From Escherichia coli (GTDB lineage Bacteria; Pseudomonadota; Gammaproteobacteria; Enterobacterales; Enterobacteriaceae), in the NCBI RefSeq assembly GCF_017348835.2, contig NZ_CP071375.1: 64,000 bases of DNA, one strand, 5' to 3'. The position numbers were made by a program, and so were the translations under genes. A model generated the notes under the pieces. It was not told the DNA's origin. It saw only the letters and a program-made list of their open reading frames with translations, and ran no database searches. Shown in pieces: positions 1-52,901 of the stretch; position 1 is the first letter of the stretch, and each line of letters starts with the position of its first letter.

Positions 1-497
1 AAATCTGGACCATTCCCGCCACAAGGGAAACAATTGAGAAAGTCCGTTTCTCTGGCCGTGGCGCAAAAATGCGTACTCCACATATTGTGCCACTTTCCCG
101 ACAGGCTATTGCCATTCTGAAGCAGATACAGGATATCTCAGGTCATCTGGATCTGGTGTTCCCCGGTGATCATAATCTCTATAAGCCAATGAGTGAAAAC
201 ACCACCAACCGGGCACTGCGGTTAATGGGCTATAACACAAAAACCGATGTGTGTGGTCATGGCTTTCGGGCAATGGCCTGTAGCGCGCTGGTGGAATCCG
301 AACTCTGGTCACGGGATGCCGTGGAGCGGCAGATGAGCCATCAGGAGCGCAACAGTGTGCGGGCGGCATATATCCATCGTGCTGAACATCTTGATGCCCG
401 TAAAGCCATGATGCAGTGGTGGTCGGATTATCTGGACGTGAGCCGCGAGGGGTACGTTGCGCCTTATATTTATGCGCGGCGGCATAAGGCGGCCTGA
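1..497 (+). CDS. P4-type tyrosine integrase, C-terminal catalytic portion (partial; 5-prime end outside window)
   Basis: Reading frame is open from the window edge to the stop at 497. C-terminal motifs HGFRAMACS, RAAYIHRAEH and MMQWWSDYLD are typical of P4/CP4-57 IntA-family integrases. Confidence 0.8.
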   Translation, partial: IWTIPATRETIEKVRFSGRGAKMRTPHIVPLSRQAIAILKQIQDISGHLDLVFPGDHNLYKPMSENTTNRALRLMGYNTKTDVCGHGFRAMACSALVESELWSRDAVERQMSHQERNSVRAAYIHRAEHLDARKAMMQWWSDYLDVSREGYVAPYIYARRHKAA

Positions 498-528
498 GCC
501 AGTCATTGCGTAATTTTCTGATAATGGA

Positions 529-566
529 AAAGCAGATCCTGATTGAATTCGGATCTGCTTTTTACA
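529..566 (+). terminator. Intrinsic terminator downstream of the integrase fragment
   Basis: 10-bp stem aagcagatcc/ggatctgctt with 11-nt loop followed by a T-run. Confidence 0.5.
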
Positions 567-888
567 TTAGACAATCTGCACCAGAAACTGATTTACCGGT
601 ACGCCATAACTGCACCAGTTCAATGCCACCGTTTACCTGCGCCAGTCTGCCGTCGCCCATTTATATCAGGACTGCGCCAGATACCATCGGATAAACATCG
701 ATCTGCGCCAGCTTTAGCCTTTTAAGCCCTTTGGCCTTTTCCGGTCTGGCGCTGTTACCCTTAGCCGCCCTTTACCTTTATCTGGCCTTTTTCTGGCGCA
801 ATGATCAGAAAAATACCGTAATGCTGCACCAGAATCCTGTTAATAGGCTATACCGTTCGTAAGCACCGTTATTAAGGGGAAACCGTAC

Positions 889-914
889 AAAAAATTTCTA
901 CGTAGAAATTTTTT
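889..914. repeat. Perfect 26-bp palindrome aaaaaatttctacgtagaaatttttt
   Basis: Read directly from the sequence; shares the arm gtacaaaaaattt with the palindrome at 3391-3426 on the other side of the IS66 element. Confidence 0.6.
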
Positions 915-1062
915 CGGTGGATAACGATGAATAAAGGGTATTTTATAATATGACGACTATCAAAAATCGTTCGCTCAAACATAATTCATTGATTTATCGT
1001 AACGTTCCGGTGAACTCACATTGACGGCGCTGACCGGTTCTGCATTCCGCAGTTCGTCCCGG

Positions 1063-2601
1063 TCAGTTATTCAGGGGATTTTTCGCGAAGGGTAACAGTT
1101 CGTGCTGCCGCTCCTGCGGCCATACCGGCAGACGCTCCAGCACCTGTTTCAGCCAGCCATACGGCTCCATGCCGTTCAGCCGCGCTGTCTCCAGCAGGCT
1201 CATCACCGCTGCCGCACGATGCCCTGCCTGCAACGAGCCGGCAAACAGCCACGTATTCCGCCCCATCACCACCTGCCGGATCGCACGCTCACACCGGTTA
1301 TTGTCCAGTGGCAGCGCACCGTCATCCACGAACCGGCTCAGTTCCGTTTTGTGAGACAGTGCATATTTTATCGCCTTATGCAGCGCCGAACCCGGCGCGC
1401 ACCGCTGTTCCTGCGCCGTCAGCCACGACCACAGCGCATCCAGTTGCGGTTTCGCATACCGCTGTCGCCACTGCCGGCGCTTTTCCGGCGACCTGTGGCG
1501 GAGACTGTATAACCCGTGGATCATCTTCAGCGCCGTTCCGGCATGGGGATCGCGGTTCGCCTTATATAACGCTACGAAGCCGCGCCGCGCGTGCGCCCAA
1601 CAGCCTGCGTTGATGATACTGCCACCGTTTTTCAGCGAGTGATACGCCGCGTAGCCATCTGTCACCAGAGTCCCGCTCCAGCCCGACAGCCACGCTTCAG
1701 AATAACGCGCCGCCCGTCCGGGCTGACAGTCGAAGCAGACCACGCTGTCGCCCGTGGCTTCGCCGCTGGCATACGCCCACAGATAACCGTTCTGCACTTT
1801 CCCGCCTTTCTTCGTGTTCAGGATTTGCAGCGGCGTTTCATCCGCATGAAGCACCGGGCGGCTTAACAGTTCCGTGCGCAGCAGCTCCGCCAGCGGCATC
1901 AGCCAGACGCAGGCCGCGCCCACCCATCCGGCCAGCGTGCTCACCGGCAGCTCCACTCCGGCGCGGGCGAACACCTGCTGCTGGTGATACAGCGGCTGAC
2001 GGTCGCAGAACTTGCTGACCAGCACCTGCGCCACCAGGCCCGGCTCCGGGATGCCCTTCGGGATAATCCGTGCGGGCAGACGGCCTGAGACCACGCACTG
2101 GCAGCCGTCGCAGCCGTACTGCGGGCGGACATAACGCTTCACCACGAACTGCGCGGGGATGTAGTCCAGCCGCTCACTGATTTCATCACGGATATGGCGC
2201 AGCGGCTGGCCGCAGTCCGGACAGGCGCAGGCGTCAGGTCTGATAACCGTTTCTTCGCGTGGCAGGTGCGCCGGCAGCGGTTTGCGGGCAGGACGGGCTT
2301 TTTTCTCTTCCGGCTCCGGTAGCAGACGCGTAAGCTGCGTTTCAGCAGAAGCGATATCCGCGTCGGCATCTTCTTCGAACAGGGAACGCTGTAAGCCGCT
2401 GAAGGATTCGGCATGACGGCCAAAACGCTGCTGGCGGGCCAGCATCAGGGCTTCTTTCAGCAGATGTATCTGGTGATCTTTTTTGTGGCTTTCTTCCAGG
2501 AGGGATAACGCCAGCTTACGCAGCGTGTCGGGGTCGTTGGTGGAGAGAAGCGCGGTGATATCCATGCCGGGTATTATACGCTTTCCGGTACGGATATTCA
2601 T
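1063..2601 (-). CDS. IS66-family transposase TnpC
   Basis: 512-aa ORF with Cys-rich zinc-finger region (CPDCG...CDGCQ) and IS66 transposase core. Confidence 0.85.
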   Translation of the reverse strand: MNIRTGKRIIPGMDITALLSTNDPDTLRKLALSLLEESHKKDHQIHLLKEALMLARQQRFGRHAESFSGLQRSLFEEDADADIASAETQLTRLLPEPEEKKARPARKPLPAHLPREETVIRPDACACPDCGQPLRHIRDEISERLDYIPAQFVVKRYVRPQYGCDGCQCVVSGRLPARIIPKGIPEPGLVAQVLVSKFCDRQPLYHQQQVFARAGVELPVSTLAGWVGAACVWLMPLAELLRTELLSRPVLHADETPLQILNTKKGGKVQNGYLWAYASGEATGDSVVCFDCQPGRAARYSEAWLSGWSGTLVTDGYAAYHSLKNGGSIINAGCWAHARRGFVALYKANRDPHAGTALKMIHGLYSLRHRSPEKRRQWRQRYAKPQLDALWSWLTAQEQRCAPGSALHKAIKYALSHKTELSRFVDDGALPLDNNRCERAIRQVVMGRNTWLFAGSLQAGHRAAAVMSLLETARLNGMEPYGWLKQVLERLPVWPQERQHELLPFAKNPLNN

Positions 2602-2607
2602 TTAAAA

Positions 2608-2964
2608 TCATTGCATTAGTAACGTGCATGATGCCCATTTTGTCAGGTCATGACCGGACATTTTCTGCCAGTCGATGCCGGAGACGAGCCAGTCAAACTG
2701 TTCCGGGGTGAGTGACCATGTGCTGTCGCCGTCACGCGGCCAGGTGAAACGCCCCCGGTGCAGGCGGCGGGAGCAGAGCCAGACGCCATGTTTATCCCAC
2801 CGCAGCAGTTTGATGCGGGTGCGGTTTTTATTGGTGAAGAGGAAGGCGGCGCCGTTATGCCAGGGCATGCAGAGTGAGTTCTGCACATACATCGTGAGGA
2901 CATCAATACCGCAGCGCATATCGACGGGATGGCGGACGAGGAAGAGGCGCTCAGGCTTCAGCAT
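2608..2964 (-). CDS. IS66-family TnpB-like protein
   Basis: 118-aa ORF with the typical IS66 orfB signature (LFLVRHPVDMRCGIDVL...). Confidence 0.75.
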   Translation of the reverse strand: MLKPERLFLVRHPVDMRCGIDVLTMYVQNSLCMPWHNGAAFLFTNKNRTRIKLLRWDKHGVWLCSRRLHRGRFTWPRDGDSTWSLTPEQFDWLVSGIDWQKMSGHDLTKWASCTLLMQ

Positions 2965-3262
2965 GTTTCACCGCCCGGAGAACGTCAGGAAGTTGAGCGG
3001 GAAGGCAGTCAATACGACAACCGCCGGGAAGATGGAGGGTGATGACGCCACCGGCTGGCGCGGGTTCAGGTGATGGCTGAATACAGACGGGCAGCAGTAC
3101 GGGGTGCTCAGCAACAGAGACGCCGTCATCCGGCAGGCGAAGCCATTCGTGAAAAGCATGTGAAGGAAGGCCGTGGAGGCGACAATACTGAAGCCGGGTA
3201 AGGCCGCTGGCGCGCCAGTCACGGACATGCTGAATTTTTTGCGTGGTGGAGTGGGTGGTCAT
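2951..3262 (-). CDS. IS66-family accessory protein TnpA-like
   Basis: First small ORF of the IS66 module, overlapping the start of the next ORF. Confidence 0.65.
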   Translation of the reverse strand: MTTHSTTQKIQHVRDWRASGLTRLQYCRLHGLPSHAFHEWLRLPDDGVSVAEHPVLLPVCIQPSPEPAPAGGVITLHLPGGCRIDCLPAQLPDVLRAVKHAEA

Positions 3263-3390
3263 GTTTTTATCTCACGGAATAAACATGACCACGATGCTAC
3301 AGGGCTGAAAAAATTTGAAAATGTGAGTTCACCGGAACGTTACAATTTAATAGTTGATGATTATTGATTTTGTCAGTGTTGATAGGAAAG

Positions 3391-3426
3391 CGTACAAAAA
3401 ATTTTGCCCCCAAAATTTTTTGTACG
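3391..3426. repeat. Palindromic site-like repeat: 15-bp inverted arms cgtacaaaaaatttt / aaaattttttgtacg around 6-bp spacer gccccc
   Basis: Read directly; lies about 110 bp downstream of the recombinase gene, surrounded by iterated ttttgcccc and ccgatg(g)ataa motifs (3400-3515). Confidence 0.6.
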
Positions 3427-3535
3427 AAAACCGATGAATAACCCGGGATTAATAGGAAACCACCCCAAATTATTTGCCCCAAATAATTTTGCCCGAAAAC
3501 CGATGGATAACGCGATCTTTTCAAGGCAACGGCTA

Positions 3536-4420
3536 TCAGTCAGTATCCCTTCGCCCGTAAACCTGCGCCACATACCGCCCGCGCCCGTCGCCGTGGCCCA
3601 AATCCATCGACGTCATCGCCAGCGCTTCCTTCTCACAAAATCCCTGCGCCAGATAATGACGAATGGCATCCTGCGCCCATGCGTAGCGCAACGAGTGCGG
3701 GGAATATGCGCCCGTTAAGCCAAGACGTGACGCCTGACTGTGCCAGTATTTCATCGCGCTTTTCAGATCCGGCTTATCTATCAGTCTGCCGTGACGATCT
3801 TCTGCCACCGCCAGCGCATTATCCAGCGCGTTTCTGACAGCAACAGCATCAATAATAATTGTCTCACGGGGTCGCCCGCCTTTGGTGCCGAACACCACGG
3901 TTAAGCGAGTGTCACCAAGATCCAGCGCCTGCCGCCACGTTTTCAGCGATTGTGCGCTTTGTACCGCCTCCTGCGAACGTAATCCCATCAGCCTTGAGAG
4001 TTCCAGCGTTGCCGCCAGCCCCGGATCTTTTGCGCGGGCGGTTTCCAGCACATGGCGGTAATGCTCCGGCGTGATGGCCCGCTTCGTACCGTTACGGGAT
4101 GCGCCAGACAGGCCCAGCGAGCGGTTATTCAGTCGCTCACTCTGCGCCAGCCTGTCACGCCCGGCCTGTTTCAGAATGCAGCGCACCGCCGCCATCTCAT
4201 TTTGCAGGGAACGCTTCGTGATACCCTGCGCCAGTCGTTCACGAACATATCCCTCAATATACCGCGCCTTAAGCTGCTCCACCCGGCGGATCTGCACATT
4301 CTGTGCCAGAACCAGACGCTCACAAAACCGCTGCACCAGCTTAATACGGTCGTGAACGGTCTTATGGCTGCCGCCCGCCTGCTGTGCCAGTCGCTTCATT
4401 TCCTGCTCCAGAATCCCCAT
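3536..4420 (-). CDS. Short tyrosine site-specific recombinase (phage-integrase family, Xer-like size)
   Basis: 294 aa; catalytic-type residues in RLMGLRSQE (Arg), HSLRYAWAQ (H-x-x-R) and C-terminal GRGRYVAQVYG (Tyr). Confidence 0.7.
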   Translation of the reverse strand: MGILEQEMKRLAQQAGGSHKTVHDRIKLVQRFCERLVLAQNVQIRRVEQLKARYIEGYVRERLAQGITKRSLQNEMAAVRCILKQAGRDRLAQSERLNNRSLGLSGASRNGTKRAITPEHYRHVLETARAKDPGLAATLELSRLMGLRSQEAVQSAQSLKTWRQALDLGDTRLTVVFGTKGGRPRETIIIDAVAVRNALDNALAVAEDRHGRLIDKPDLKSAMKYWHSQASRLGLTGAYSPHSLRYAWAQDAIRHYLAQGFCEKEALAMTSMDLGHGDGRGRYVAQVYGRRDTD

Positions 4421-5046
4421 ACATTCCCCCTTTCATGATTGCCGCAAACTCATCCCCAAAAACTCAACACTGATACAGCGTTCCCCGGCGCACAGGCCGA
4501 TAGCCCCTGAGTTTTGTCGGGGCTGCGAACGATACCTGAGCGCCGGGGCGGCAGCCGTTGAGGTGTGGTGGGGCTTCGGTTGTGCTCTCAGAGCAGCCGC
4601 CCGCTTGCGCGGGTCATCCCCCGGATCGTCCAGATCCGCCTCGGTATCGGTTCATGTTCTCCTTATGGGTAAATGGCCTGAAAAGGCGGTGTCAGAATCC
4701 AGCCATGAGCTGGCGCAGTTGAGTTTTCTGGTGCAGGTCGAAAGGGCTTGCGTGCGTCACTTTCCCGCTTTGCGCGGTTAAAGTGACGCACGGATCTGGT
4801 GCAGCATCTGAGATTTATCGTCTGGTGCAGTTTTACGGTCACGCGGCAGCAAAGCCTGACGGCAATGCAGGCCGCAGCCCGTAAGGTAAAAGGCGCTGAG
4901 GGTGTCAGCAGATGCAGGTTAGCCGGGAGAATTCCGGCGCGGTGCAGATTCAGACCAGCAGGCTGGCGAAGTAAAAGGATGTATCGTATTAAAACTCTGG
5001 CCTCCGTCGCGATGTTCTGCGACCCGGTGTTTGCAGAGGTCTGCAC

Positions 5047-5195
5047 CGGTAAACGGATCGACCGTCCTGATAACAGGCGCTTCTTTCAGGTTGTGAAGCG
5101 TTGGGCGCTGTCTACGACAGCATAGAGCAAGGGGGAGACTACGCCTGTGCCGCTGGCGCGGAAAGGAGAAACTGTTTTTACCTGCAAAAGGATTT
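5047..5195. repeat. Imperfect direct repeat, copy A, flanking the toxin-antitoxin cassette
   Basis: Shares ccggtaaa...ccgtcctgata.caggcgcttctttcaggt...tgaagc and gaaactg.ttt..c.g..aaaggatt with 6016-6147. Confidence 0.5.
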
Positions 5196-5212
5196 TTTAA
5201 TCACTTGTTGTT

Positions 5213-5248
5213 ATAAAAAATGAGGGCGCTGTATGTGACAGCGCCCTC
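5213..5248 (-). terminator. Intrinsic terminator downstream of the toxin gene
   Basis: Stem gagggcgctgt/acagcgccctc; on the minus strand it is followed by a U-run. Confidence 0.55.
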
Positions 5249-5269
5249 GTTCAGGTTACATAAAAAATA

Positions 5270-5602
5270 TCAGCTCAGAATAGCTTCCAGTCGAGCCAGC
5301 ACCTCATTCACGACAGCATCGGGTATACGTTCCAGCCGCTTACCGCTCCGAGCTCCCATATCAATGGTTCTGGGCTGGTCGCAGCGAATAACGCCCGTTG
5401 TTTTTGTTCCCGCCCCGTCCAGTGAAACGGTAAAACCGGCTTCGCGGGCAAAGTTTCCGCCGCTGGTGACAGGGACAACAACAGGCAACCGGGTGAACGT
5501 GTTAAACGATGCCTTCGATACGATGAGTACCGGACGTTTTCCACTTTGTTCATGGCCAGTGGTGGGATCCAGTGAAACGAGCCAGATTTCTCCTCTGTCC
5601 AT
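5270..5602 (-). CDS. PemK/MazF-family endoribonuclease toxin (ChpB-like)
   Basis: 110 aa; GEIWLVSLDPTTGHEQSGKRPVLIVS and GGNFAREAGF resemble ChpB/MazF. Confidence 0.85.
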   Translation of the reverse strand: MDRGEIWLVSLDPTTGHEQSGKRPVLIVSKASFNTFTRLPVVVPVTSGGNFAREAGFTVSLDGAGTKTTGVIRCDQPRTIDMGARSGKRLERIPDAVVNEVLARLEAILS

Positions 5603-5860
5603 CTACAGGATCTCCTTGCCCACCGCAGGCGCATCAATCCATTCCCGACCCTCTTCGCTTATTTCAGCGTGCGGATCGCACTGCGCCAACAGTTCTTCGA
5701 GCGAATAGCGGGGACGTTTTTGAGGTTCAATAATCAGGCAGCCATCATCAATGGTCATGCCCACTTCGCTGTCCGTCGACAGCCCTAGCGTTTTCAGCAC
5801 GGCGGGGGGAACCGCCAGCATGACGGATCCGCCAACCTTTTTCAGGCGAGTGGTATACAT
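5603..5860 (-). CDS. MazE/ChpS-like antitoxin
   Basis: ATG at 5858-5860 with GAGGTG just upstream; 85 aa; RYSLEELLAQCD motif as in ChpS; stop abuts the toxin start. The longer ORF-track call (to 6013) is taken as an upstream extension. Confidence 0.8.
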   Translation of the reverse strand: MYTTRLKKVGGSVMLAVPPAVLKTLGLSTDSEVGMTIDDGCLIIEPQKRPRYSLEELLAQCDPHAEISEEGREWIDAPAVGKEIL

Positions 5861-6015
5861 AGAGCACCTCCAGATATTATATTTTAATATAACATCTACG
5901 GCAGACGATGCACAACTATTCATCAGGTTCATTGTGGTTTCCTTAGTGTAATAAAGCGTGAAGAAAGCCTTAATCCATCGGAAGACAGATCCGGCAGTTT
6001 TCAAAGGCGACATTG

Positions 6016-6147
6016 CCGGTAAAAGGGCAACCGTCCTGATACATCAGGCGCTTCTTTCAGGTCATGAAGCATTTCGTACAGGCGGGAGCTTAGTGCGTAA
6101 CAAAGAAGGCCGATAATAGGAAACTGCTTTTGCAGTTCAAAGGATTA
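6016..6147. repeat. Imperfect direct repeat, copy B, flanking the toxin-antitoxin cassette
   Basis: Homologous to 5047-5195; contains palindrome cctgatacatcagg. Confidence 0.5.
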
Positions 6148-6208
6148 TGACGGTTCGGATAAACAAAATGCGGCGCAGCTTCCGTATCCGGGCTGCGCCG
6201 CAGGAACA

Positions 6209-6415
6209 TCAGCGGTAGCGCGAAGGCCAGATTTGCTCAGGCTTGAAGCCTAACGCTTCGGCAATTAACCTTTCGCCTTTGGGCCAGCGGCGGGTAAGCG
6301 CATTAGCCAGCGTGGAGGACGCCAGACCTGCCTGACGCGAAAGCGCTGACAGCGAAGTGCCTCGTTTTTTCAGCCCGGCGATAATGTCGGCAGGATGCCA
6401 GTCCTGCAGCATCAT
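6209..6415 (-). CDS. Ner/Nlp(SfsB)-family small DNA-binding protein
   Basis: 68 aa; WHPADIIAGLKKRGTSLSALSR...STLANAL...WPKGE...WPSRY matches the Ner/Nlp family. Confidence 0.8.
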   Translation of the reverse strand: MMLQDWHPADIIAGLKKRGTSLSALSRQAGLASSTLANALTRRWPKGERLIAEALGFKPEQIWPSRYR

Positions 6416-6873
6416 GCAGCCACCTCGTCGATAAACTTCACGCCGTCGGCGGTGCGGAGCCAGCGCGGGGCTTTCATTTCGGCGGCAAAATACCAGACCA
6501 GTTCACATAATAAGCCTGTTATCGTCTGCTCCACTTTTGGCTGCATCCCCTGCCCGATAAGAAGTTGCGCCAGCGTCAGTGAGTAATCACAAAGTAATTC
6601 TGCGTCGGGGACAAATCGGGGCATATCGGCAGGTAGAGCATCAACGGTCAGGCTGTCAGTCAGATGAGACGGGATGGGGTCGTTCAGCGTGGGTTGCAGC
6701 AAAGTGAGACAGGCGGCAAGTCGCCCGCAAAGCGCCAGCCGCAGCACCGGATCTTCGCTTTCGATCAGGGTTTCGGCGACGTTTTCGCAGTGGTCTGCCA
6801 GTACGGTAAAATCTGTGGCAGCACTGAAGGGAACAGCAAGTAACGGGTGTGTCTGAGTGGGGATCGTAGCCAT
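6412..6873 (-). CDS. Hypothetical protein, 4-bp overlap with the Ner-like gene
   Basis: 153-aa ORF with high GC and no motif I recognise; the overlap suggests an operon with the Ner-like gene. Confidence 0.5.
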   Translation of the reverse strand: MATIPTQTHPLLAVPFSAATDFTVLADHCENVAETLIESEDPVLRLALCGRLAACLTLLQPTLNDPIPSHLTDSLTVDALPADMPRFVPDAELLCDYSLTLAQLLIGQGMQPKVEQTITGLLCELVWYFAAEMKAPRWLRTADGVKFIDEVAA

Positions 6874-7035
6874 AAAGGCAGCCTCCAGTATGTGGTTTGA
6901 AAACCACCACCAGAGGTTCCAATCTCATGGGTGGTGGACTGAACGAGGTTGGAACTACCGGCCATACTGGAACCGGCGCACCTTACGGTGCCCCCGCCCA
7001 GCCCACCATAATTTTGGTGTAGCTAAGCGCGCGAC

Positions 7036-7058
7036 ATAAAAAAAGACGCAGACGCGTC
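7036..7058 (-). terminator. Possible intrinsic terminator for the AT-rich two-gene operon
   Basis: Minus-strand hairpin gacgc-gtct-gcgtc followed by a 7-nt U-run, about 190 bp downstream of the 534-aa ORF. Confidence 0.4.
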
Positions 7059-7243
7059 ACGTGTCGCCAGTATGGTTATATTTCGGGGTTCCAATCCCGG
7101 CACCTGATTTTGCAGGTGCGGGTAAAAGATACCGCTTTCGGTTGAAAACGGCAAGGGGAAGTCGTGGAATAGAGATCGCAGATTGTTATAAATATACACA
7201 ATAGTTAATGTTAACAAAGACGGCACATATATTAACTTTACTC

Positions 7244-8848
7244 TCAATCTGCTGAATAGTTTATCGCATGTAATTCTCGGGTCATATAGTGGATACCCTC
7301 CTTCTTTTCTTTCATCCCCTCTTGCCTCACCATAAAAGCAAACGAAAAAATTGCTGAACGAGTTATCTGAAGTAAATGCTCAAAATGGTGAATAAAATCA
7401 CTTTCTTTGATAAAAAGAATATCTTCTATTAGTTGATAAGATTCGTAAATGTCCTCAGGTTTATCACTTTTATGTACAACTAAAAACTTATGCTCTAAAC
7501 CATTGCGCCATTCTTTATAGAAAGCCAACTCCCCACCCTTATCTTTATTCAGGTCGGTAGCAATACTGTACAGCGCCAGAAGCCCTGGTGATTTTACCTT
7601 TTCAAATAATTGTCTTCTGTTATCAACATCTAACTGCCAGAAATTCTGAAAATAGATATTCTTCTGAGATGTACCTTTTTTTGTTGTTGGGTAAAGATTA
7701 TAAAGTTCACATATGGCTACCGCAATTTTATCAAGAATACCAAAGCAAAGACGAAATGCCGTCCTGATTTTTTCAATTTCTATTCCTAAAACTTCGTCAT
7801 TATACAATTCCAGAAAATGGCTTTCGTACTTAATGTAATCCGTATTTTGTGGATGAAGATAATCAAAATAAAGATGGCGTGCGAGTGAAAACTCCGATTT
7901 AAGGCGATTTAATACCATCTCCATGGGAATGATAAAATCACCTGTTACACCGCCTCGCGAAGCAATCACAAGATCATCTGTAGCACTCCCTACACATGGG
8001 CAATACAGGCCATGTTCTGATAAAGTCAGATGATTTCTAAGACAAAACTGTCGATATGGGCTTAACGCTTCGAACTCTTGTTGTGTAAGTGCTTCATCGT
8101 GTTCGTCAGTTTCATCATCAACAGCATATTCTGCGATTTTCTCGTTAGTCTGCGCTATGCGTTCTAAATAGAACGATTCCCATTGTGGTGGGATATTTTT
8201 TGATACAGACGCTTTAATATATCCTGCTCTCACTTCTTTTAGTAACTTGATTGAAAATGAAGATGAAATAAGATTGAGGACCATAAGTGACATCGAACGG
8301 TTGACCCAAGCCTGTGGTATATCTAATCCCTTAAGATTGGTAAGATCATAATATCTCAATGACTCACTGAGCCGAAATTGACTTCTTAATGAATTAGCCA
8401 AATTAACAGATAGTTCAGCCTGAAATTCCTCCTGCTCCTCAGCAGATAGCTTAAAAGAACGCCAGTAGATATTTTTTAAGGAAACCAATTCTTCTATCGA
8501 TTTGAATGTATGGTCATTGGGGTTAGTAATGCTCACCAGATTAGATAGCGCATTACCATAGTTATAATAGTAAAGGCACTCTCCTAACACTGATATAAAT
8601 GCTTCTTTGTTATCTTCCATCAGGTTGCAACCAAGCTCTGACGCATTTTTATTATTTTGCATCTGCCCGATGTCAACAAGAGCACCCGCAATGTTCGCCA
8701 ATACTATAAAGTAGTTATCGTTCCTGATTGTTATTCTTTCCAGTTTGTTCAGGAACGCAACTGACTGTTGATAAGATTCGTCAAATCTTCCAATATCAAC
8801 CAGTTGGCTAATGAAATTACTTTCATCGACAAGTTCTTTTGTTATCAA
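7244..8848 (-). CDS. Large hypothetical protein with C-terminal HEPN-like motif (candidate RNase effector)
   Basis: 534 aa, strongly AT-rich coding sequence, TTG start 12 nt after the upstream gene's stop. C-terminal EWRNGLEH fits the HEPN R-x4-H motif. Confidence 0.6.
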   Translation of the reverse strand: MITKELVDESNFISQLVDIGRFDESYQQSVAFLNKLERITIRNDNYFIVLANIAGALVDIGQMQNNKNASELGCNLMEDNKEAFISVLGECLYYYNYGNALSNLVSITNPNDHTFKSIEELVSLKNIYWRSFKLSAEEQEEFQAELSVNLANSLRSQFRLSESLRYYDLTNLKGLDIPQAWVNRSMSLMVLNLISSSFSIKLLKEVRAGYIKASVSKNIPPQWESFYLERIAQTNEKIAEYAVDDETDEHDEALTQQEFEALSPYRQFCLRNHLTLSEHGLYCPCVGSATDDLVIASRGGVTGDFIIPMEMVLNRLKSEFSLARHLYFDYLHPQNTDYIKYESHFLELYNDEVLGIEIEKIRTAFRLCFGILDKIAVAICELYNLYPTTKKGTSQKNIYFQNFWQLDVDNRRQLFEKVKSPGLLALYSIATDLNKDKGGELAFYKEWRNGLEHKFLVVHKSDKPEDIYESYQLIEDILFIKESDFIHHFEHLLQITRSAIFSFAFMVRQEGMKEKKEGIHYMTRELHAINYSAD

Positions 8849-8860
8849 AATAAATTTTCC

Positions 8861-22831: not shown

Positions 22832-22907
22832 TGGCTCCTCTGACTGGACTCGAACCAGTGACATACGGATTAACAGTCCGCCGTTCTACCGACTGAACTA
22901 CAGAGGA
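22832..22907 (-). tRNA. asnW: tRNA-Asn (GUU)
   Basis: Reverse complement reads TCCTCTGTAGTTCAGTCGGTAGAACGGCGGACTGTTAATCCGTATGTCACTGGTTCGAGTCCAGTCAGAGGAGCCA. Confidence 0.95.
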
Positions 22908-24294
22908 ATCGTGAGAACGAGGCGAATATTAGCGATGCCCACCCACAATGTCAAAGCCTGTTTTTTAAATTTGAAATCGTTTGCTGAAATAATCTGCATT
23001 TTGTCGTTTATTCCGACACAACTGGCTTTTTTTCACACTTTTGCGGCTCGGATCGAGGGTATTTCCATAGCCAACGTCCAGTAACCATTCGCCAGTAAAA
23101 CAGCACGGCCCGCACAGCCCAGTCGGCAAACATTCCCATCCAGACACCAACCACACCCCAGCCAAGCATGATTCCCAGCACATAACCGACTACAACCCGA
23201 CAACCCCACATGCTCAACATCGAAACCCACATGGCGTAACGGGCATCACGAGCACCTTTAAATCCAGCGGGTAGCACCCATGAGGCGGACCAAATAGGCA
23301 TAAATAAAGCATTTAGCCAAATCAGAATCACAACGACATGTTTAACCTGTGGATCCTGGGTGTAAAACGATGCCATAAGCCCGGCAAAGGGAGCCGTTAG
23401 CCAGGCGATGGCCGTTAATCCAAGAGTGGACAGCCAGAACACATGCCGCAACTGAATCTCTGCTTGCGCTATCTGCCCTACCCCCAACCTTCGGCCTGTA
23501 ATGATCGTAGAAGCAGAGCCGAGCGCACTTCCGGGTAAGTTGATAAGAGCCGCAATTGAAAACGCGATAAAATTTCCGGCAATAACACTGGTCCCCATCC
23601 CGGCAACGAACATTTGGGTTAATAACCGACCACTGGTAAATAACACTGATTCGACACTCGCTGGAATACCAATCCCCATGACTTCCCAGATAATGCTAAA
23701 ATTCAGCGGTTTAAAATAGCTCTTTAACGAAATCCTTAGCGCAGGATTAAAACCAATCGCCAGCACCCACAAAATTGCAACTGCGCCAATATAACGAGAA
23801 ATGGTTAAACCCAACCCAGCCCCGACAAATCCCAGTCCCGGCCAGGAGAAAAGGCCGTAAATCAATATGCCGCTAATAATAATATTAAGAATATTCAGGC
23901 TACCGTTAATCAGTAGCGGTATTTTCGTATTCCCTGCACCACGAAGTGCCCCGCTACCAATCAAAGTGATGGCAGCTGCTGGATAACTGAGTACCGTCAG
24001 CTCCAGATAAGTCAACGCCAGTGCTTTAACTTCTGTCGTGGCATCACCCGCAACGAAATCAATAATTTGTTCGCCAAAATGATGAATAAGCGTTGCCAAC
24101 AGTACGGCAAACAAAGTCATGATCACCAATGACTGCCGCGTCGCCACCCTCGCTCGTCGTCGATCCCGCTTACCGAGACTAAATGCCACAACGACAGTAG
24201 TACCAAGATCGATAGCAGCAAAAAAAGCCATAATGACCATATTGAAGCTGTCTGAACCGCCCCGGGTTTCCTGGAGAGTGTTTTATCTGTGAAC

Positions 24295-25182
24295 TCAGGC
24301 TGCCAGATCATTATTTCCGATGGAAGCATAATAAGCTTTTTCTGCTTCTGCCGGAGGAATATGGCCCAGCCTTTCCAGCAATCGTCGATTGTTATACCAG
24401 TCCACCCACGTTAGTGTGGCCAGTTCCACTTCTGTCCGGTTTTTCCAGCTCTTACGGTGTATTACCTCCGCTTTGTAAAGACCATTGATGCTCTCAGCCA
24501 TCGCGTTGTCATACGAGTCGCCAGTACTCCCTGTTGATGCCAGTAATCCGGCTTCCTTAAGCCGCTGCGTGTAGGCCAGCGATACATACTGAGAACCTTT
24601 ATCACTGTGATGGATTGTGCCGGACGGCCGACGGGCCCACAACGCCTGCTCCAGTGCATCCAGCACGAATGTTGTTTCCATGGATGATGAGACCTGCCAT
24701 CCCACGATGTATCCGGCGAACACATCAATGATGAACGCCACATAAACGAAGCCCTGCCATGTGCTTACCCAGGTAAAATCAGCCACCCACAACTGGTCTG
24801 GACGTTCTGCCACGAACTGACGGTTTACGCGGTCGCATGCGGCAACGGCTTTCCGGCTGACGGTAGTGCGGACCTTTTTACCCCGGAGAACACCGGCAAG
24901 TCCCATAACTGCCATGAGACGTGCCACAGTGCATCTGGCCACTCTGATACCTTCCCGTAACAACTGACGCCAGACTTTACGCACACCGTATACCTGGTGA
25001 TTTTCATCGTATACGCGCTGTATCTCTTTCTTCAGCCAGTCATCGTGCTGCGCACGGGCACTGCGTTTATCCGGATGATGTCGCTGTTGCTGACAATGGT
25101 AATACGTTGACGGGGCAATATGCAGTTCGCTGCATACCGGTCCGACCCCGTACTGCTCACGCAGCTTATCCAGCAGTGGCAT
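24295..25182 (-). CDS. IS3-family transposase OrfB
   Basis: 295 aa, near-identical to 12141-13028. Confidence 0.85.
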   Translation of the reverse strand: MPLLDKLREQYGVGPVCSELHIAPSTYYHCQQQRHHPDKRSARAQHDDWLKKEIQRVYDENHQVYGVRKVWRQLLREGIRVARCTVARLMAVMGLAGVLRGKKVRTTVSRKAVAACDRVNRQFVAERPDQLWVADFTWVSTWQGFVYVAFIIDVFAGYIVGWQVSSSMETTFVLDALEQALWARRPSGTIHHSDKGSQYVSLAYTQRLKEAGLLASTGSTGDSYDNAMAESINGLYKAEVIHRKSWKNRTEVELATLTWVDWYNNRRLLERLGHIPPAEAEKAYYASIGNNDLAA

Positions 25183-25508
25183 TATTTTTTCCAGAGGCGG
25201 TCGAACTCCGCCTTCGCAAAATAAGCGGAAGCCTGGCGAAGGATATCGTTACTGCGGCGCAGTTCACGATTTTCACGTTCCAGCTCTTTCAGACGCTGAC
25301 GTTCAGCGGTGGTGAGTCCACCATCACCACTCCCGGTATCCCGCTCATGCTGGCGAACCCAGACACGCAGAGTCTCCGGCGTACAGCCAATCTTTGGGGC
25401 AATGGAACAAATTGCCGCCCACTGTGAGTCATATTCATCCTGACTTTCCAGAACCATACGAATCGCCCGCTGACGGACTTCGGGGGAAAAACGAGTATTT
25501 TTAGTCAT
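25182..25508 (-). CDS. IS3-family transposase OrfA
   Basis: 108 aa, identical to 11815-12141 product. Confidence 0.85.
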
Positions 25509-25968
25509 CCTGTTTACCTCTTTCTCAGGGAGTTTAGTCTCCAGGATTTCCGGGGCGGTTCAGTCCGCCAATCCCACGCCGGCCATCGCATCTTTTCCCA
25601 GCCAACTGACCAGAAAAGTGCTCAGGACACCCATCAGCAGGACACAGGCATTCTCCATGTAGATAGGAACAGCAAGCGGGGTTATCTCGCGCCAGAACAA
25701 CACTTTGTAACTCTTGCGTTTGGCGTGCCAGCGAGTGCCGTGAACAACCTGGCGTAAAGCAGAGGAGATATTCAAAGCCGACCTTAATTGCAGAAAGTGA
25801 AACCACATTTCAAATGATGAGGGAGAATCAGCAAAGCTGCAAAGATTTTCGCCAACAAATTGTCTGCAAATGCAACAAACTGTTGATAGAAACGGCAAAC
25901 AGTTGGGAAATTTAAAAATCGGGTTTGACAAAAGATTTTTCGCCGTTAAGATGTGCCTCAACAGCGAT

Positions 25969-26044
25969 TCCTCTGTAGTTCAGTCGGTAGAACGGCGGAC
26001 TGTTAATCCGTATGTCACTGGTTCGAGTCCAGTCAGAGGAGCCA
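25969..26044 (+). tRNA. asnU: tRNA-Asn (GUU)
   Basis: 76-nt sequence identical to the other Asn tRNA copies; ends in CCA. Confidence 0.95.
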
Positions 26045-28375: not shown

Positions 28376-28451
28376 TCCTCTGTAGTTCAGTCGGTAGAAC
28401 GGCGGACTGTTAATCCGTATGTCACTGGTTCGAGTCCAGTCAGAGGAGCCA
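28376..28451 (+). tRNA. asnV: tRNA-Asn (GUU)
   Basis: Third identical 76-nt Asn tRNA copy, with a downstream hairpin terminator. Confidence 0.95.
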
Positions 28452-50219: not shown

Positions 50220-50479
50220 TCTCCTTTACGGTGATAACCGTCGCGTAAGCAAAAAATTGCCCCATTTTTTTGGATTCCTCAGCGACAACAACTGTCGATT
50301 TTTAGTAAATATCTATCCGGTACGAAGCCCGGCCTCTTGGTATGAATGATTGGTTTGAAGCAAAAAATAACCGACGCTGATGAAACGTCGGTTTTTAGTC
50401 ATTTTTTGACAGCGGCGCATTGTGCCTAAATGGGGGGGAAATGACAAGAGAATGAGAGGCTTGTCATAATAATTTTTCT

Positions 50480-51454: not shown

Positions 51455-52279
51455 TTACTCCAGCGGCATTACCAGCGGATCGGGATACTGGTATTCAAAC
51501 CCCAGTTCATTACAAATCCGACTGCCATCAATAATCTTACCTTTGCCGCTGTCCAGACTATTTCTGAACTGCGGAGGTTCCAGCCCCAGTAAACGGGCCA
51601 TCTGCGGATAGAAAACATTACGCGCAGGGTGAGCTGGCGCACATATATTATAGATGTGTCCGCCTTTAGGTGCCTGTAACAACAGAGTGATAGCGCCAAT
51701 AACATCTTCTAAATGGACTAAATTAACACCATGTTCACCATCAGGCGCGGTTTTTCCGGCAAAGAAGCGTCCGGGATGACGTCCCGGTCCGACCAGGCCC
51801 GCAAGACGCAGAATATCGACCGAAGTACCGGGTAAATTGTGCAGCCAGTCTTCAAGTTCTTCTAATACTCGTCCACTGTTGGTTACCGGATTACGCGGGG
51901 TAGTTTCTTTCACCGTGCCTTGCGCGTCGCCATAGACAGATGTTGAGCTGGTGAAAATAATGCGGGGAATACGATGGGCCAGCGCGCTATCTACTAACTC
52001 TTGTACCGCTTGTAAATAGAACTCATCGCCGGGGCCGCTACGACGGGCCGGAAGCGTAATGACCAGCGCATCGGCATCCATCAGGGCATCCAGATCGTCA
52101 GAATCGCAAACTAACTCAGGCTCCATGCGAAGCAGATAGCTATCAATGCCACTCATTCGGGCCGCTTCGACACCATCTTGTGTGGTTTTACTCCCGGTGA
52201 CTTGCCAGCCTCGCGCTGAAAGTGACATCGCCAGCGGCATGCCTAACCACCCTAACCCGACAATTGCGACCTTTTTCAT
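51455..52279 (-). CDS. yeeZ: NAD-dependent epimerase/dehydratase-family protein
   Basis: 274 aa with Rossmann motif (VAIVGLGWLG). Confidence 0.85.
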   Translation of the reverse strand: MKKVAIVGLGWLGMPLAMSLSARGWQVTGSKTTQDGVEAARMSGIDSYLLRMEPELVCDSDDLDALMDADALVITLPARRSGPGDEFYLQAVQELVDSALAHRIPRIIFTSSTSVYGDAQGTVKETTPRNPVTNSGRVLEELEDWLHNLPGTSVDILRLAGLVGPGRHPGRFFAGKTAPDGEHGVNLVHLEDVIGAITLLLQAPKGGHIYNICAPAHPARNVFYPQMARLLGLEPPQFRNSLDSGKGKIIDGSRICNELGFEYQYPDPLVMPLE

Positions 52280-52383
52280 CCGTTATCTCCTGATACACCT
52301 TAGATCTATAAGGCTACGCTAGCGTATCAAAACTGACAATTCATTCTATGAATGAAATCGAAACTGTTAGCAAATATACAATT

Positions 52384-52412
52384 GCCTGATGCGCTCCGCT
52401 TATCAGCCCTAC
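52384..52412. repeat. REP-like palindromic element
   Basis: gcctgatgcgctccgcttatcagccctac resembles E. coli REP units. Confidence 0.5.
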
Positions 52413-52637
52413 AAAAACATCAATATATTGAATTTAGGCAACATTTGTAGACCAGATAAGGCATTCACGCCGCATCCGGCAGGAACAAAGCCCACTTTAG
52501 TTACAGAACACAATGTTCTTGAGGGTTTTAAAGACATATTTTCACGATTACTTTTCTAACGTAGTCACTCCAGGCCCCCACCTTTCCCCGCTCATTCATT
52601 AAACAAATCCATTGCCATAAAATATATAAAAAAGCCC

Positions 52638-52667
52638 TTGCTTTCTAACGTGAAAGTGGTTTAGGTT
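52638..52667 (+). promoter_or_regulatory. Probable his operon promoter
   Basis: TTGCTT and TAGGTT hexamers at about 17-18 bp spacing upstream of hisL. Confidence 0.5.
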
Positions 52668-52705
52668 AAAAGACATCAGTTAAATAAACATTCACAGAGA
52701 CGTTT

Positions 52706-52756
52706 ATGACACGCGTTCAATTTAAACACCACCATCATCACCATCATCCTGACTAG
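52706..52756 (+). CDS. hisL: his operon leader peptide
   Basis: MTRVQFKHHHHHHHPD with seven consecutive His codons. Confidence 0.95.
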   Translation: MTRVQFKHHHHHHHPD

Positions 52757-52820
52757 TCTTTCAGGCGATGTGTGCTGGAAGACATTCAGATCTTCCAGTG
52801 GTGCATGAACGCATGAGAAA

Positions 52821-52854
52821 GCCCCCGGAAGATCACCTTCCGGGGGCTTTTTTA
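52821..52854 (+). terminator. his attenuator terminator
   Basis: GC-rich hairpin gcccccggaag...cttccgggggc followed by a T-run. Confidence 0.9.
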
Positions 52855-52901
52855 TTGCGCGGTTGATAACGGTTCAGACAGGTTTAAAGAGGAATAAGAA
52901 A

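Follow-up and report, generated by a model that had tools for sequence, protein, structure and literature searches.

The leader in front of hisG in this DNA is almost certainly the ribosome-mediated transcription attenuator of the Escherichia coli hisLGDCBHAFI operon. By its sequence it is an element that is already known, namely the classical attenuator of E. coli and Salmonella and a member of the Rfam family His_leader (RF00514). Throughout, the window refers to the whole stretch of 64,000 nucleotides (64 kb) that was analysed.

Identity of the leader and its gene context

The assignment rests on an RNA-family match and on the genes that follow it:

52732-52855, + strand: match to Rfam His_leader (RF00514), model positions 1-126 of 126, 131.6 bits
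52902-53801, + strand: hisG, first structural gene (NCBIfam TIGR00070, 193.5 bits, cut-off 75.75)
from 53807, + strand: hisD (NCBIfam TIGR00069, 537.8 bits)

The Rfam match is the top-scoring RNA-family match in the 64-kb window, and with 131.6 bits, for a gathering score of 49 (E = 1.9e-23), the leader is placed within the family. The genes hisG and hisD were called with NCBIfam equivalog models, while the order hisGDCBHAFI, followed by wzzB and ugd, was taken from collinearity with the annotated genome of E. coli PE164, to which the window is collinear at 99.995% identity (99.99% over positions 1-61910). The attenuator is found directly 5' of its cognate biosynthetic genes and on the same strand as these (+), and a genome that is 100% identical has hisL annotated at this site. 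On the 5' side the closest gene is yeeZ (51455-52279), which lies on the opposite strand and is divergent.

Alignment with E. coli K-12 MG1655 shows 100% identity over 52683-52897, a span that begins just 5' of hisL, ends just short of hisG and covers hisL, all six pairing segments, the terminator and the T-run. A preliminary description of this DNA had taken the leader as confirming the identity and orientation of the his operon, which is borne out by hisG and hisD on the + strand behind a K-12-identical leader. It had also called the element not novel, correctly, the leader being base-for-base that of K-12. The region is present, and annotated as hisL, His leader and hisG, in 5423 of 5426 complete E. 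coli genomes, with 4554 of the 5423 at least 99% identical over 52700-52860. Matches to plasmid records were considered as a sign of mobility and discarded: these records measure 0.3-4.9 Mb, several being as large as a whole E. coli chromosome, which suggests that chromosomal sequence was deposited under a plasmid label.

Leader peptide, signals and alternative RNA structures

The features of the leader, with the helices named by the segments A to F that form them, are the following:

52638-52667, + strand: probable his promoter, TTGCTT (52638-52643), 18-bp spacer, TAGGTT (52662-52667)
52706-52756, + strand: hisL leader peptide ORF, ATG to TAG, 16 codons, translation MTRVQFKHHHHHHHPD followed by the stop
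52727-52747, + strand: seven consecutive His codons (CAC CAC CAT CAT CAC CAT CAT), regulatory
52739-52745 and 52748-52752 with 52761-52765 and 52767-52774, + strand: A:B pairing, -11.7 kcal/mol
52748-52765, + strand: his pause hairpin, the apical part of A:B, 5 bp with an 8-nt loop
52776, + strand: putative his pause position (U, -1), with G -10 at 52767 and G +1 at 52777
52756-52764 with 52775-52783, + strand: B:C, the first alternative helix, -10.6 kcal/mol, in masked nascent folds
52775-52782 with 52791-52798, + strand: C:D hairpin, -9.9 kcal/mol
52789-52796 with 52827-52834, + strand: D:E antiterminator, -15.2 kcal/mol
52813-52855, + strand: E:F intrinsic terminator (attenuator), 19-bp stem, 5-nt loop, T-run at 52848-52853

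The codons of hisL read ATG ACA CGC GTT CAA TTT AAA CAC CAC CAT CAT CAC CAT CAT CCT GAC TAG, so that seven of its 16 codons are consecutive His codons, as expected of the leader ORF of a ribosome-mediated attenuator. A GAGA motif is located 8-11 nt 5' of the ATG. A run of seven CAY codons occurs only once in the 64-kb window, both strands taken together, and in none of 100 dinucleotide-preserving shuffles. Translation and run count are thereby in agreement with the leader peptide of the preliminary description. The span of 52706-52854 given there for the whole attenuator holds to within one base; 52854 is an A that lies past the T-run, and the extended stem continues to 52855. Two other ORFs of this region were set aside as mechanical ORFs that have no support: one of 23 aa on the minus strand (52676-52747), which is the mere antisense of the His codons, and one of 32 aa on the plus strand (52768-52866), which overlaps the leader.

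The hexamers TTGCTT and TAGGTT, which we take to be those of the his promoter, are the same as in K-12 by alignment, and an A/T-rich tract is found just 5' of them (~52618-52634). A consensus promoter scan gave no call for this promoter because the -10 hexamer TAGGTT fits the consensus at only three of six positions. Transcription would start near 52674-52675, and the leader RNA is presumably ~180 nt long.

The arms of the terminator form the inverted repeat 52813-52831/52837-52855, which was also found by repeat search. The G+C-rich core, GCCCCCGGAAG/CUUCCGGGGGC, has a predicted folding energy of -25.1 kcal/mol, and the extended stem one of -32.2 kcal/mol; T6 follows at 52848-52853. A hairpin with T6 is therefore evident, by fold and by inverted repeat, between hisL and hisG and 47 nt before the hisG ATG, in keeping with the strong GC-rich terminator that had been described after hisL. 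The statement from a consensus terminator scan that no terminator exists in 52280-53000 was rejected as a false negative; the scan remained blank because maximal extension of the stem through A-U and G-U pairs consumes the T-run.

As for the pause, we assume that it lies exactly 11 nt 3' of the hairpin. Positions 52767, 52776 and 52777 fit the consensus G-10 Y-1 G+1. Both this consensus and the dependence on an upstream hairpin have been described for the hisL pause, together with the role of the pause hairpin (PMC9291695).

The whole leader, with a minimum free energy (MFE) of -68.4 kcal/mol, is more stable than each of 200 shuffles (z = -8.2). The free RNA forms the three hairpins A:B, C:D and E:F. 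The D:E helix, which was also recovered independently as an inverted repeat and which has additional pairs at 52798:52825 and 52800-52802:52821-52823, overlaps arm E and sequesters the 5' arm of the terminator, making antiterminator and terminator mutually exclusive.

The effect of the ribosome was explored by folding nascent RNAs with 3' ends at 52834-52838, which do not contain segment F, with the ribosome footprint masked. B:C and D:E are formed when the A site is placed on His codon 10 or 12, the mask then extending to 52747-52753, and in RNA that carries no ribosome A:B and C:D are retained. Moving the A site to the seventh His codon brings the mask into B, and the antiterminator no longer forms. 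For a ribosome that has reached the stop codon before F is transcribed, the structure favoured at equilibrium is D:E and not C:D. In silico, the position of the stalled ribosome thus decides which helix forms, and the stop-codon branch needs a kinetic argument. In the complete leader at equilibrium, the terminator is kept under every ribosome mask. These full-leader folds are uninformative for the choice between structures, given that attenuation is decided before segment F exists, and the fact that the terminator is kept under all masks means that the switch can only be kinetic. For the ribosome at the stop codon the classical reading was retained because C:D is complete before E is transcribed. 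The branch for plentiful histidine would thus depend on C:D forming first and persisting, and the kinetic order of leader folding is itself something that we infer. The check for alternative antiterminator and terminator pairings that had been proposed for this leader gives the classical A-F model, in which the stop-codon branch would follow from the order of folding. This model is attributed to Johnston et al. 1980 where PMC10989985 and PMC4046918 cite it.

Conservation of both conformations and of long-range outer helices

Homologues were retrieved by scanning genome contigs for six CAY codons followed by CCN GAY TAR. This pattern returned 120 loci, from Enterobacterales, Aeromonas and Pasteurella, and the alignment contains the leader from the window and the 110 distinct homologues that could be extracted whole (n=111). 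All 111 sequences have a short ORF that ends in (His)n-Pro-Asp-stop, with the same helices downstream of it. In hisL, six His codons are present in 92 of the 111, seven in 18 and ten in one, in a scan that by design detects only runs of at least six. The hisL genes with seven belong mostly to genera of Enterobacteriaceae, such as Escherichia, Salmonella, Klebsiella and Enterobacter. The one with ten is from Trabulsiella odontotermitis (L093:1186-1345), and its run looks like the product of a 9-nt tandem duplication of CACCATCAT.

In the 110 homologues, the terminator conformation is 95.8% paired, compared with 44-60% in controls where the pairing partners were slid by 1-3 columns, and the antiterminator conformation is 96.4% paired compared with 42-58%, a contrast that is somewhat generous given that kinship is partly retained and that the structures were derived from one of the aligned sequences. 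Taken individually, A:B is 95.8% paired in these homologues, B:C 98.8%, C:D 98.3%, and D:E 94.7% with four compensatory pairs. Compensatory changes in E:F replace C-G by U-A in 33 homologues and G-C by A-U in 24. Covariation in B:C comes only from one-sided changes that G-U pairing tolerates, because much of the region of alternative pairing is near-invariant. Positions that serve two partners are either invariant or changed within the tolerance of both: an A-to-G change in segment C pairs with U in B and in D alike, and a C-to-U change in segment E is compensated in F and still paired with its partner in D, mostly as G-U. To judge from the alignment, this is the kind of variation that a two-state switch would be expected to leave. 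The residues of the peptide outside the His run vary freely among the homologues.

The MFE fold contains two further helices that lie outside the Rfam His_leader consensus and the A-F scheme:

52713-52719 with 52806-52812, + strand: outer helix 1, encloses A:B and C:D
52727-52732 with 52798-52803, + strand: outer helix 2, encloses A:B and C:D

Outer helix 1 joins hisL codons 3-5 to the spacer between D and E. Its pairs 52713-52718:52807-52812 are 93.4% paired in the 110 homologues, with compensatory changes in five of the six, compared with 21-43% in slid controls; outer helix 2 is weaker, with 87.1% paired. Together they stabilise the untranslated fold by ~12 kcal/mol (-35.6 versus -23.2 kcal/mol) and take up bases that otherwise extend D:E. 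To judge from these folds, the outer helices would reinforce termination on untranslated leaders. It is possible, though on balance doubtful, that the conserved outer helix 1 and the weaker helix 2 form a functional extra layer. If this is the case, they would lock A:B and C:D together in leaders that are untranslated or already translated, would make the 3' part of D unavailable to the antiterminator, and might also block re-initiation at hisL. A tRNA-His-like fold was reportedly proposed for the leader (Ames et al. 1983), and the outer helix may correspond to its acceptor-like stem. The outer-helix pairing is shown in the predicted structures of PMC10989985, and priority for it is not claimed here.

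Proposed mechanism, alternatives and genomic setting

In the mechanism proposed for this leader, RNA polymerase would start ~30 nt 5' of hisL and pause after the hairpin 52748-52765, while a ribosome loads on hisL. When charged tRNA-His is plentiful, the ribosome would pass the seven His codons and reach the stop codon (52754-52756), covering A and B. In this situation C:D would form on emergence and leave E free for F, and E:F with the U-run would terminate transcription before hisG. When charged tRNA-His is scarce, the ribosome would stall on the central His codons and cover A and not B, which would allow B:C and D:E to form, with sequestration of the 5' arm of the terminator and read-through into hisG. 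In a leader that is not translated, A:B, C:D and E:F would form, reinforced by the conserved outer helix, and transcription would terminate. Experiments with the same leader, in Salmonella and E. coli, have shown that read-through responds to charged tRNA-His (PMC4046918, PMC9291695). The response to charged tRNA-His, the pausing and the requirement for translation are carried over to the present leader from this literature by sequence identity, and may be expected to apply to it. An experimental model has been described for the same 16-codon leader, and in it stalling at His4-His6 gave the strongest read-through, in Salmonella (PMC4046918). The masked folds appear to be in rough agreement with this peak.

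Other explanations of the same sequence were weighed against ribosome-mediated attenuation. In the model proposed by a 2023 study, attenuation requires, and depends mainly on, DnaA bound to 'rDnaA boxes' in the leader RNA, as a DnaA-dependent riboswitch that the ribosome only relieves (PMC10989985). That study reports DnaA-dependent effects on the transcription of hisG and not of hisL, as well as RNA immunoprecipitation in vivo, and its K-12 leader has the sequence found here. Nonetheless, each of the proposed boxes has two mismatches to TTWTNCACA, and such two-mismatch boxes number 1261 in the 64-kb window versus 1193 +/- 31 in shuffles, i.e., about one per 51 bp, so that four of them in ~250 bp of promoter and leader match chance expectation. 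DnaA-box motifs were therefore not enriched beyond chance in the window relative to shuffles, and the sequence gives the DnaA proposal no support. Moreover, DnaA binding was absent in vitro according to the same authors, and a model with the ribosome only already explains the conserved alternative pairings. For these reasons a main role of DnaA is considered unlikely. Even less probable, and in our opinion very unlikely, is a second function in trans, such as that of a base-pairing small RNA, for the ~180-nt RNA left by termination or for the peptide of 16 residues. When histidine is plentiful, a leader RNA with a stable fold is generally expected to be abundant, and trans-acting trp attenuator RNAs of other bacteria provide a precedent; nevertheless, none of the analysis results indicates a target, the conservation of the RNA is fully accounted for by the cis pairings, and the free variation of the peptide outside its His run speaks against a functional peptide.

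Short ORFs and hairpins are common in general, and it could be argued that a His-rich mini-ORF has arisen by chance beside the ordinary terminator of another transcript, the two being uncoupled. This reading has a negligible probability and was rejected on the grounds of context, His run, Rfam match and conservation. Chance expectation for the His run is zero and the Rfam E-value is 1.9e-23; the ORF, the His run and both sets of pairings are kept across orders of Gammaproteobacteria; and yeeZ is divergent, which means that there is no + strand transcript for the hairpin to terminate.

Several known systems resemble this leader to different degrees. In E. coli K-12 and Salmonella enterica, the hisL attenuator encodes the same peptide, likewise stands before hisG and is predicted to form the same alternative structures; the present leader differs from that of K-12 by three single-nucleotide polymorphisms (SNPs) outside the core and by its upstream neighbourhood. 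Other gammaproteobacterial his leader peptides share the (His)n-Pro-Asp-stop ending and the helices, six His codons being commonest and seven being present here. The logic of the trp attenuator of E. coli (trpL) is also shared, with a peptide of regulatory codons, a coupling pause hairpin, and antiterminator and terminator that exclude each other. The trpL leader has two Trp codons and four segments (1-4), as against seven His codons and six segments in the his leader, where they work as a two-step relay (B:C, then D:E); the his leader also forms a separate Rfam family. In the T-box leaders of his genes in some Firmicutes, tRNA charging likewise sets the choice between terminator and antiterminator, but by direct binding of the tRNA and in the absence of a leader peptide. 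The Rfam scan of this region gave no T-box or other riboswitch family at threshold.

The SNPs relative to K-12 lie in the leader transcript and outside the switch. Position 52682 has A where K-12 has G; 52702, located 4 nt 5' of the hisL start codon, has G instead of T; and 52898, located 4 nt 5' of the hisG start codon, has G instead of C. Their combination is a minority haplotype, given that an identity of at least 99% over 52560-52910 is reached by only 181 of the 5423 genomes. The yefM-yoeB toxin-antitoxin module, which in K-12 lies between yeeZ and hisL, is absent here (52280-52705), and homology with K-12 resumes at 52574, 64 bp 5' of the his -35 hexamer. The 426-bp spacer between yeeZ and hisL contains a REP/BIME-like imperfect inverted repeat (52399-52415 / 52444-52460). 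This spacer is present in full length in only 1192 of 5426 complete E. coli genomes, and most of the 5426 have yefM-yoeB.

Several features of the remaining window were observed along the way. By collinearity with E. coli PE164, approximately the first 11.7 kb (~1-11700) appear to be an integrated island with tyrosine recombinase/integrase genes, an IS66 element and a MazE/MazF-like pair. In this island, a 946-aa hypothetical protein adjoins a LA2681-family HEPN protein, possibly as a defence pair, and Rfam matches were obtained for EFASI RNA (4526-4655), C4 antisense RNA (6927-7013), isrK (7039-7119) and c4-a1b1 (7080-7132). Two near-identical IS3-family copies in inverted orientation follow (11757-13070 and 24253-25566), each with an ALIL frameshift pseudoknot (12096-12212 on the + strand and 25111-25227 on the - strand); in the collinear genome one of them splits yeeO and the other abuts a truncated pseudogene with Ig-like domains. 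Three identical tRNA-Asn (GTT) genes are found at 22832-22907 (-), 25969-26044 (+) and 28376-28451 (+). Two sugar-PTS clusters with rpe and hxlB adjoin the third of these in the collinear genome, and may represent an islet inserted at tRNA-Asn. Upstream of yoeI/plaP, there is an Rfam match to the STnc240 sRNA at 50360-50434 (-) with 68.2 bits.

The his attenuator is among the founding examples of transcription attenuation, and nothing about the present copy is unexpected. In the window it serves as an anchor only, fixing the identity of the his operon, its + orientation and its 5' boundary, and together with the match to PE164 it marks the window as E. coli chromosome. What may be mildly useful are the covariation figures for both conformations, from ~110 species, and a conserved outer helix that is absent from the Rfam model.
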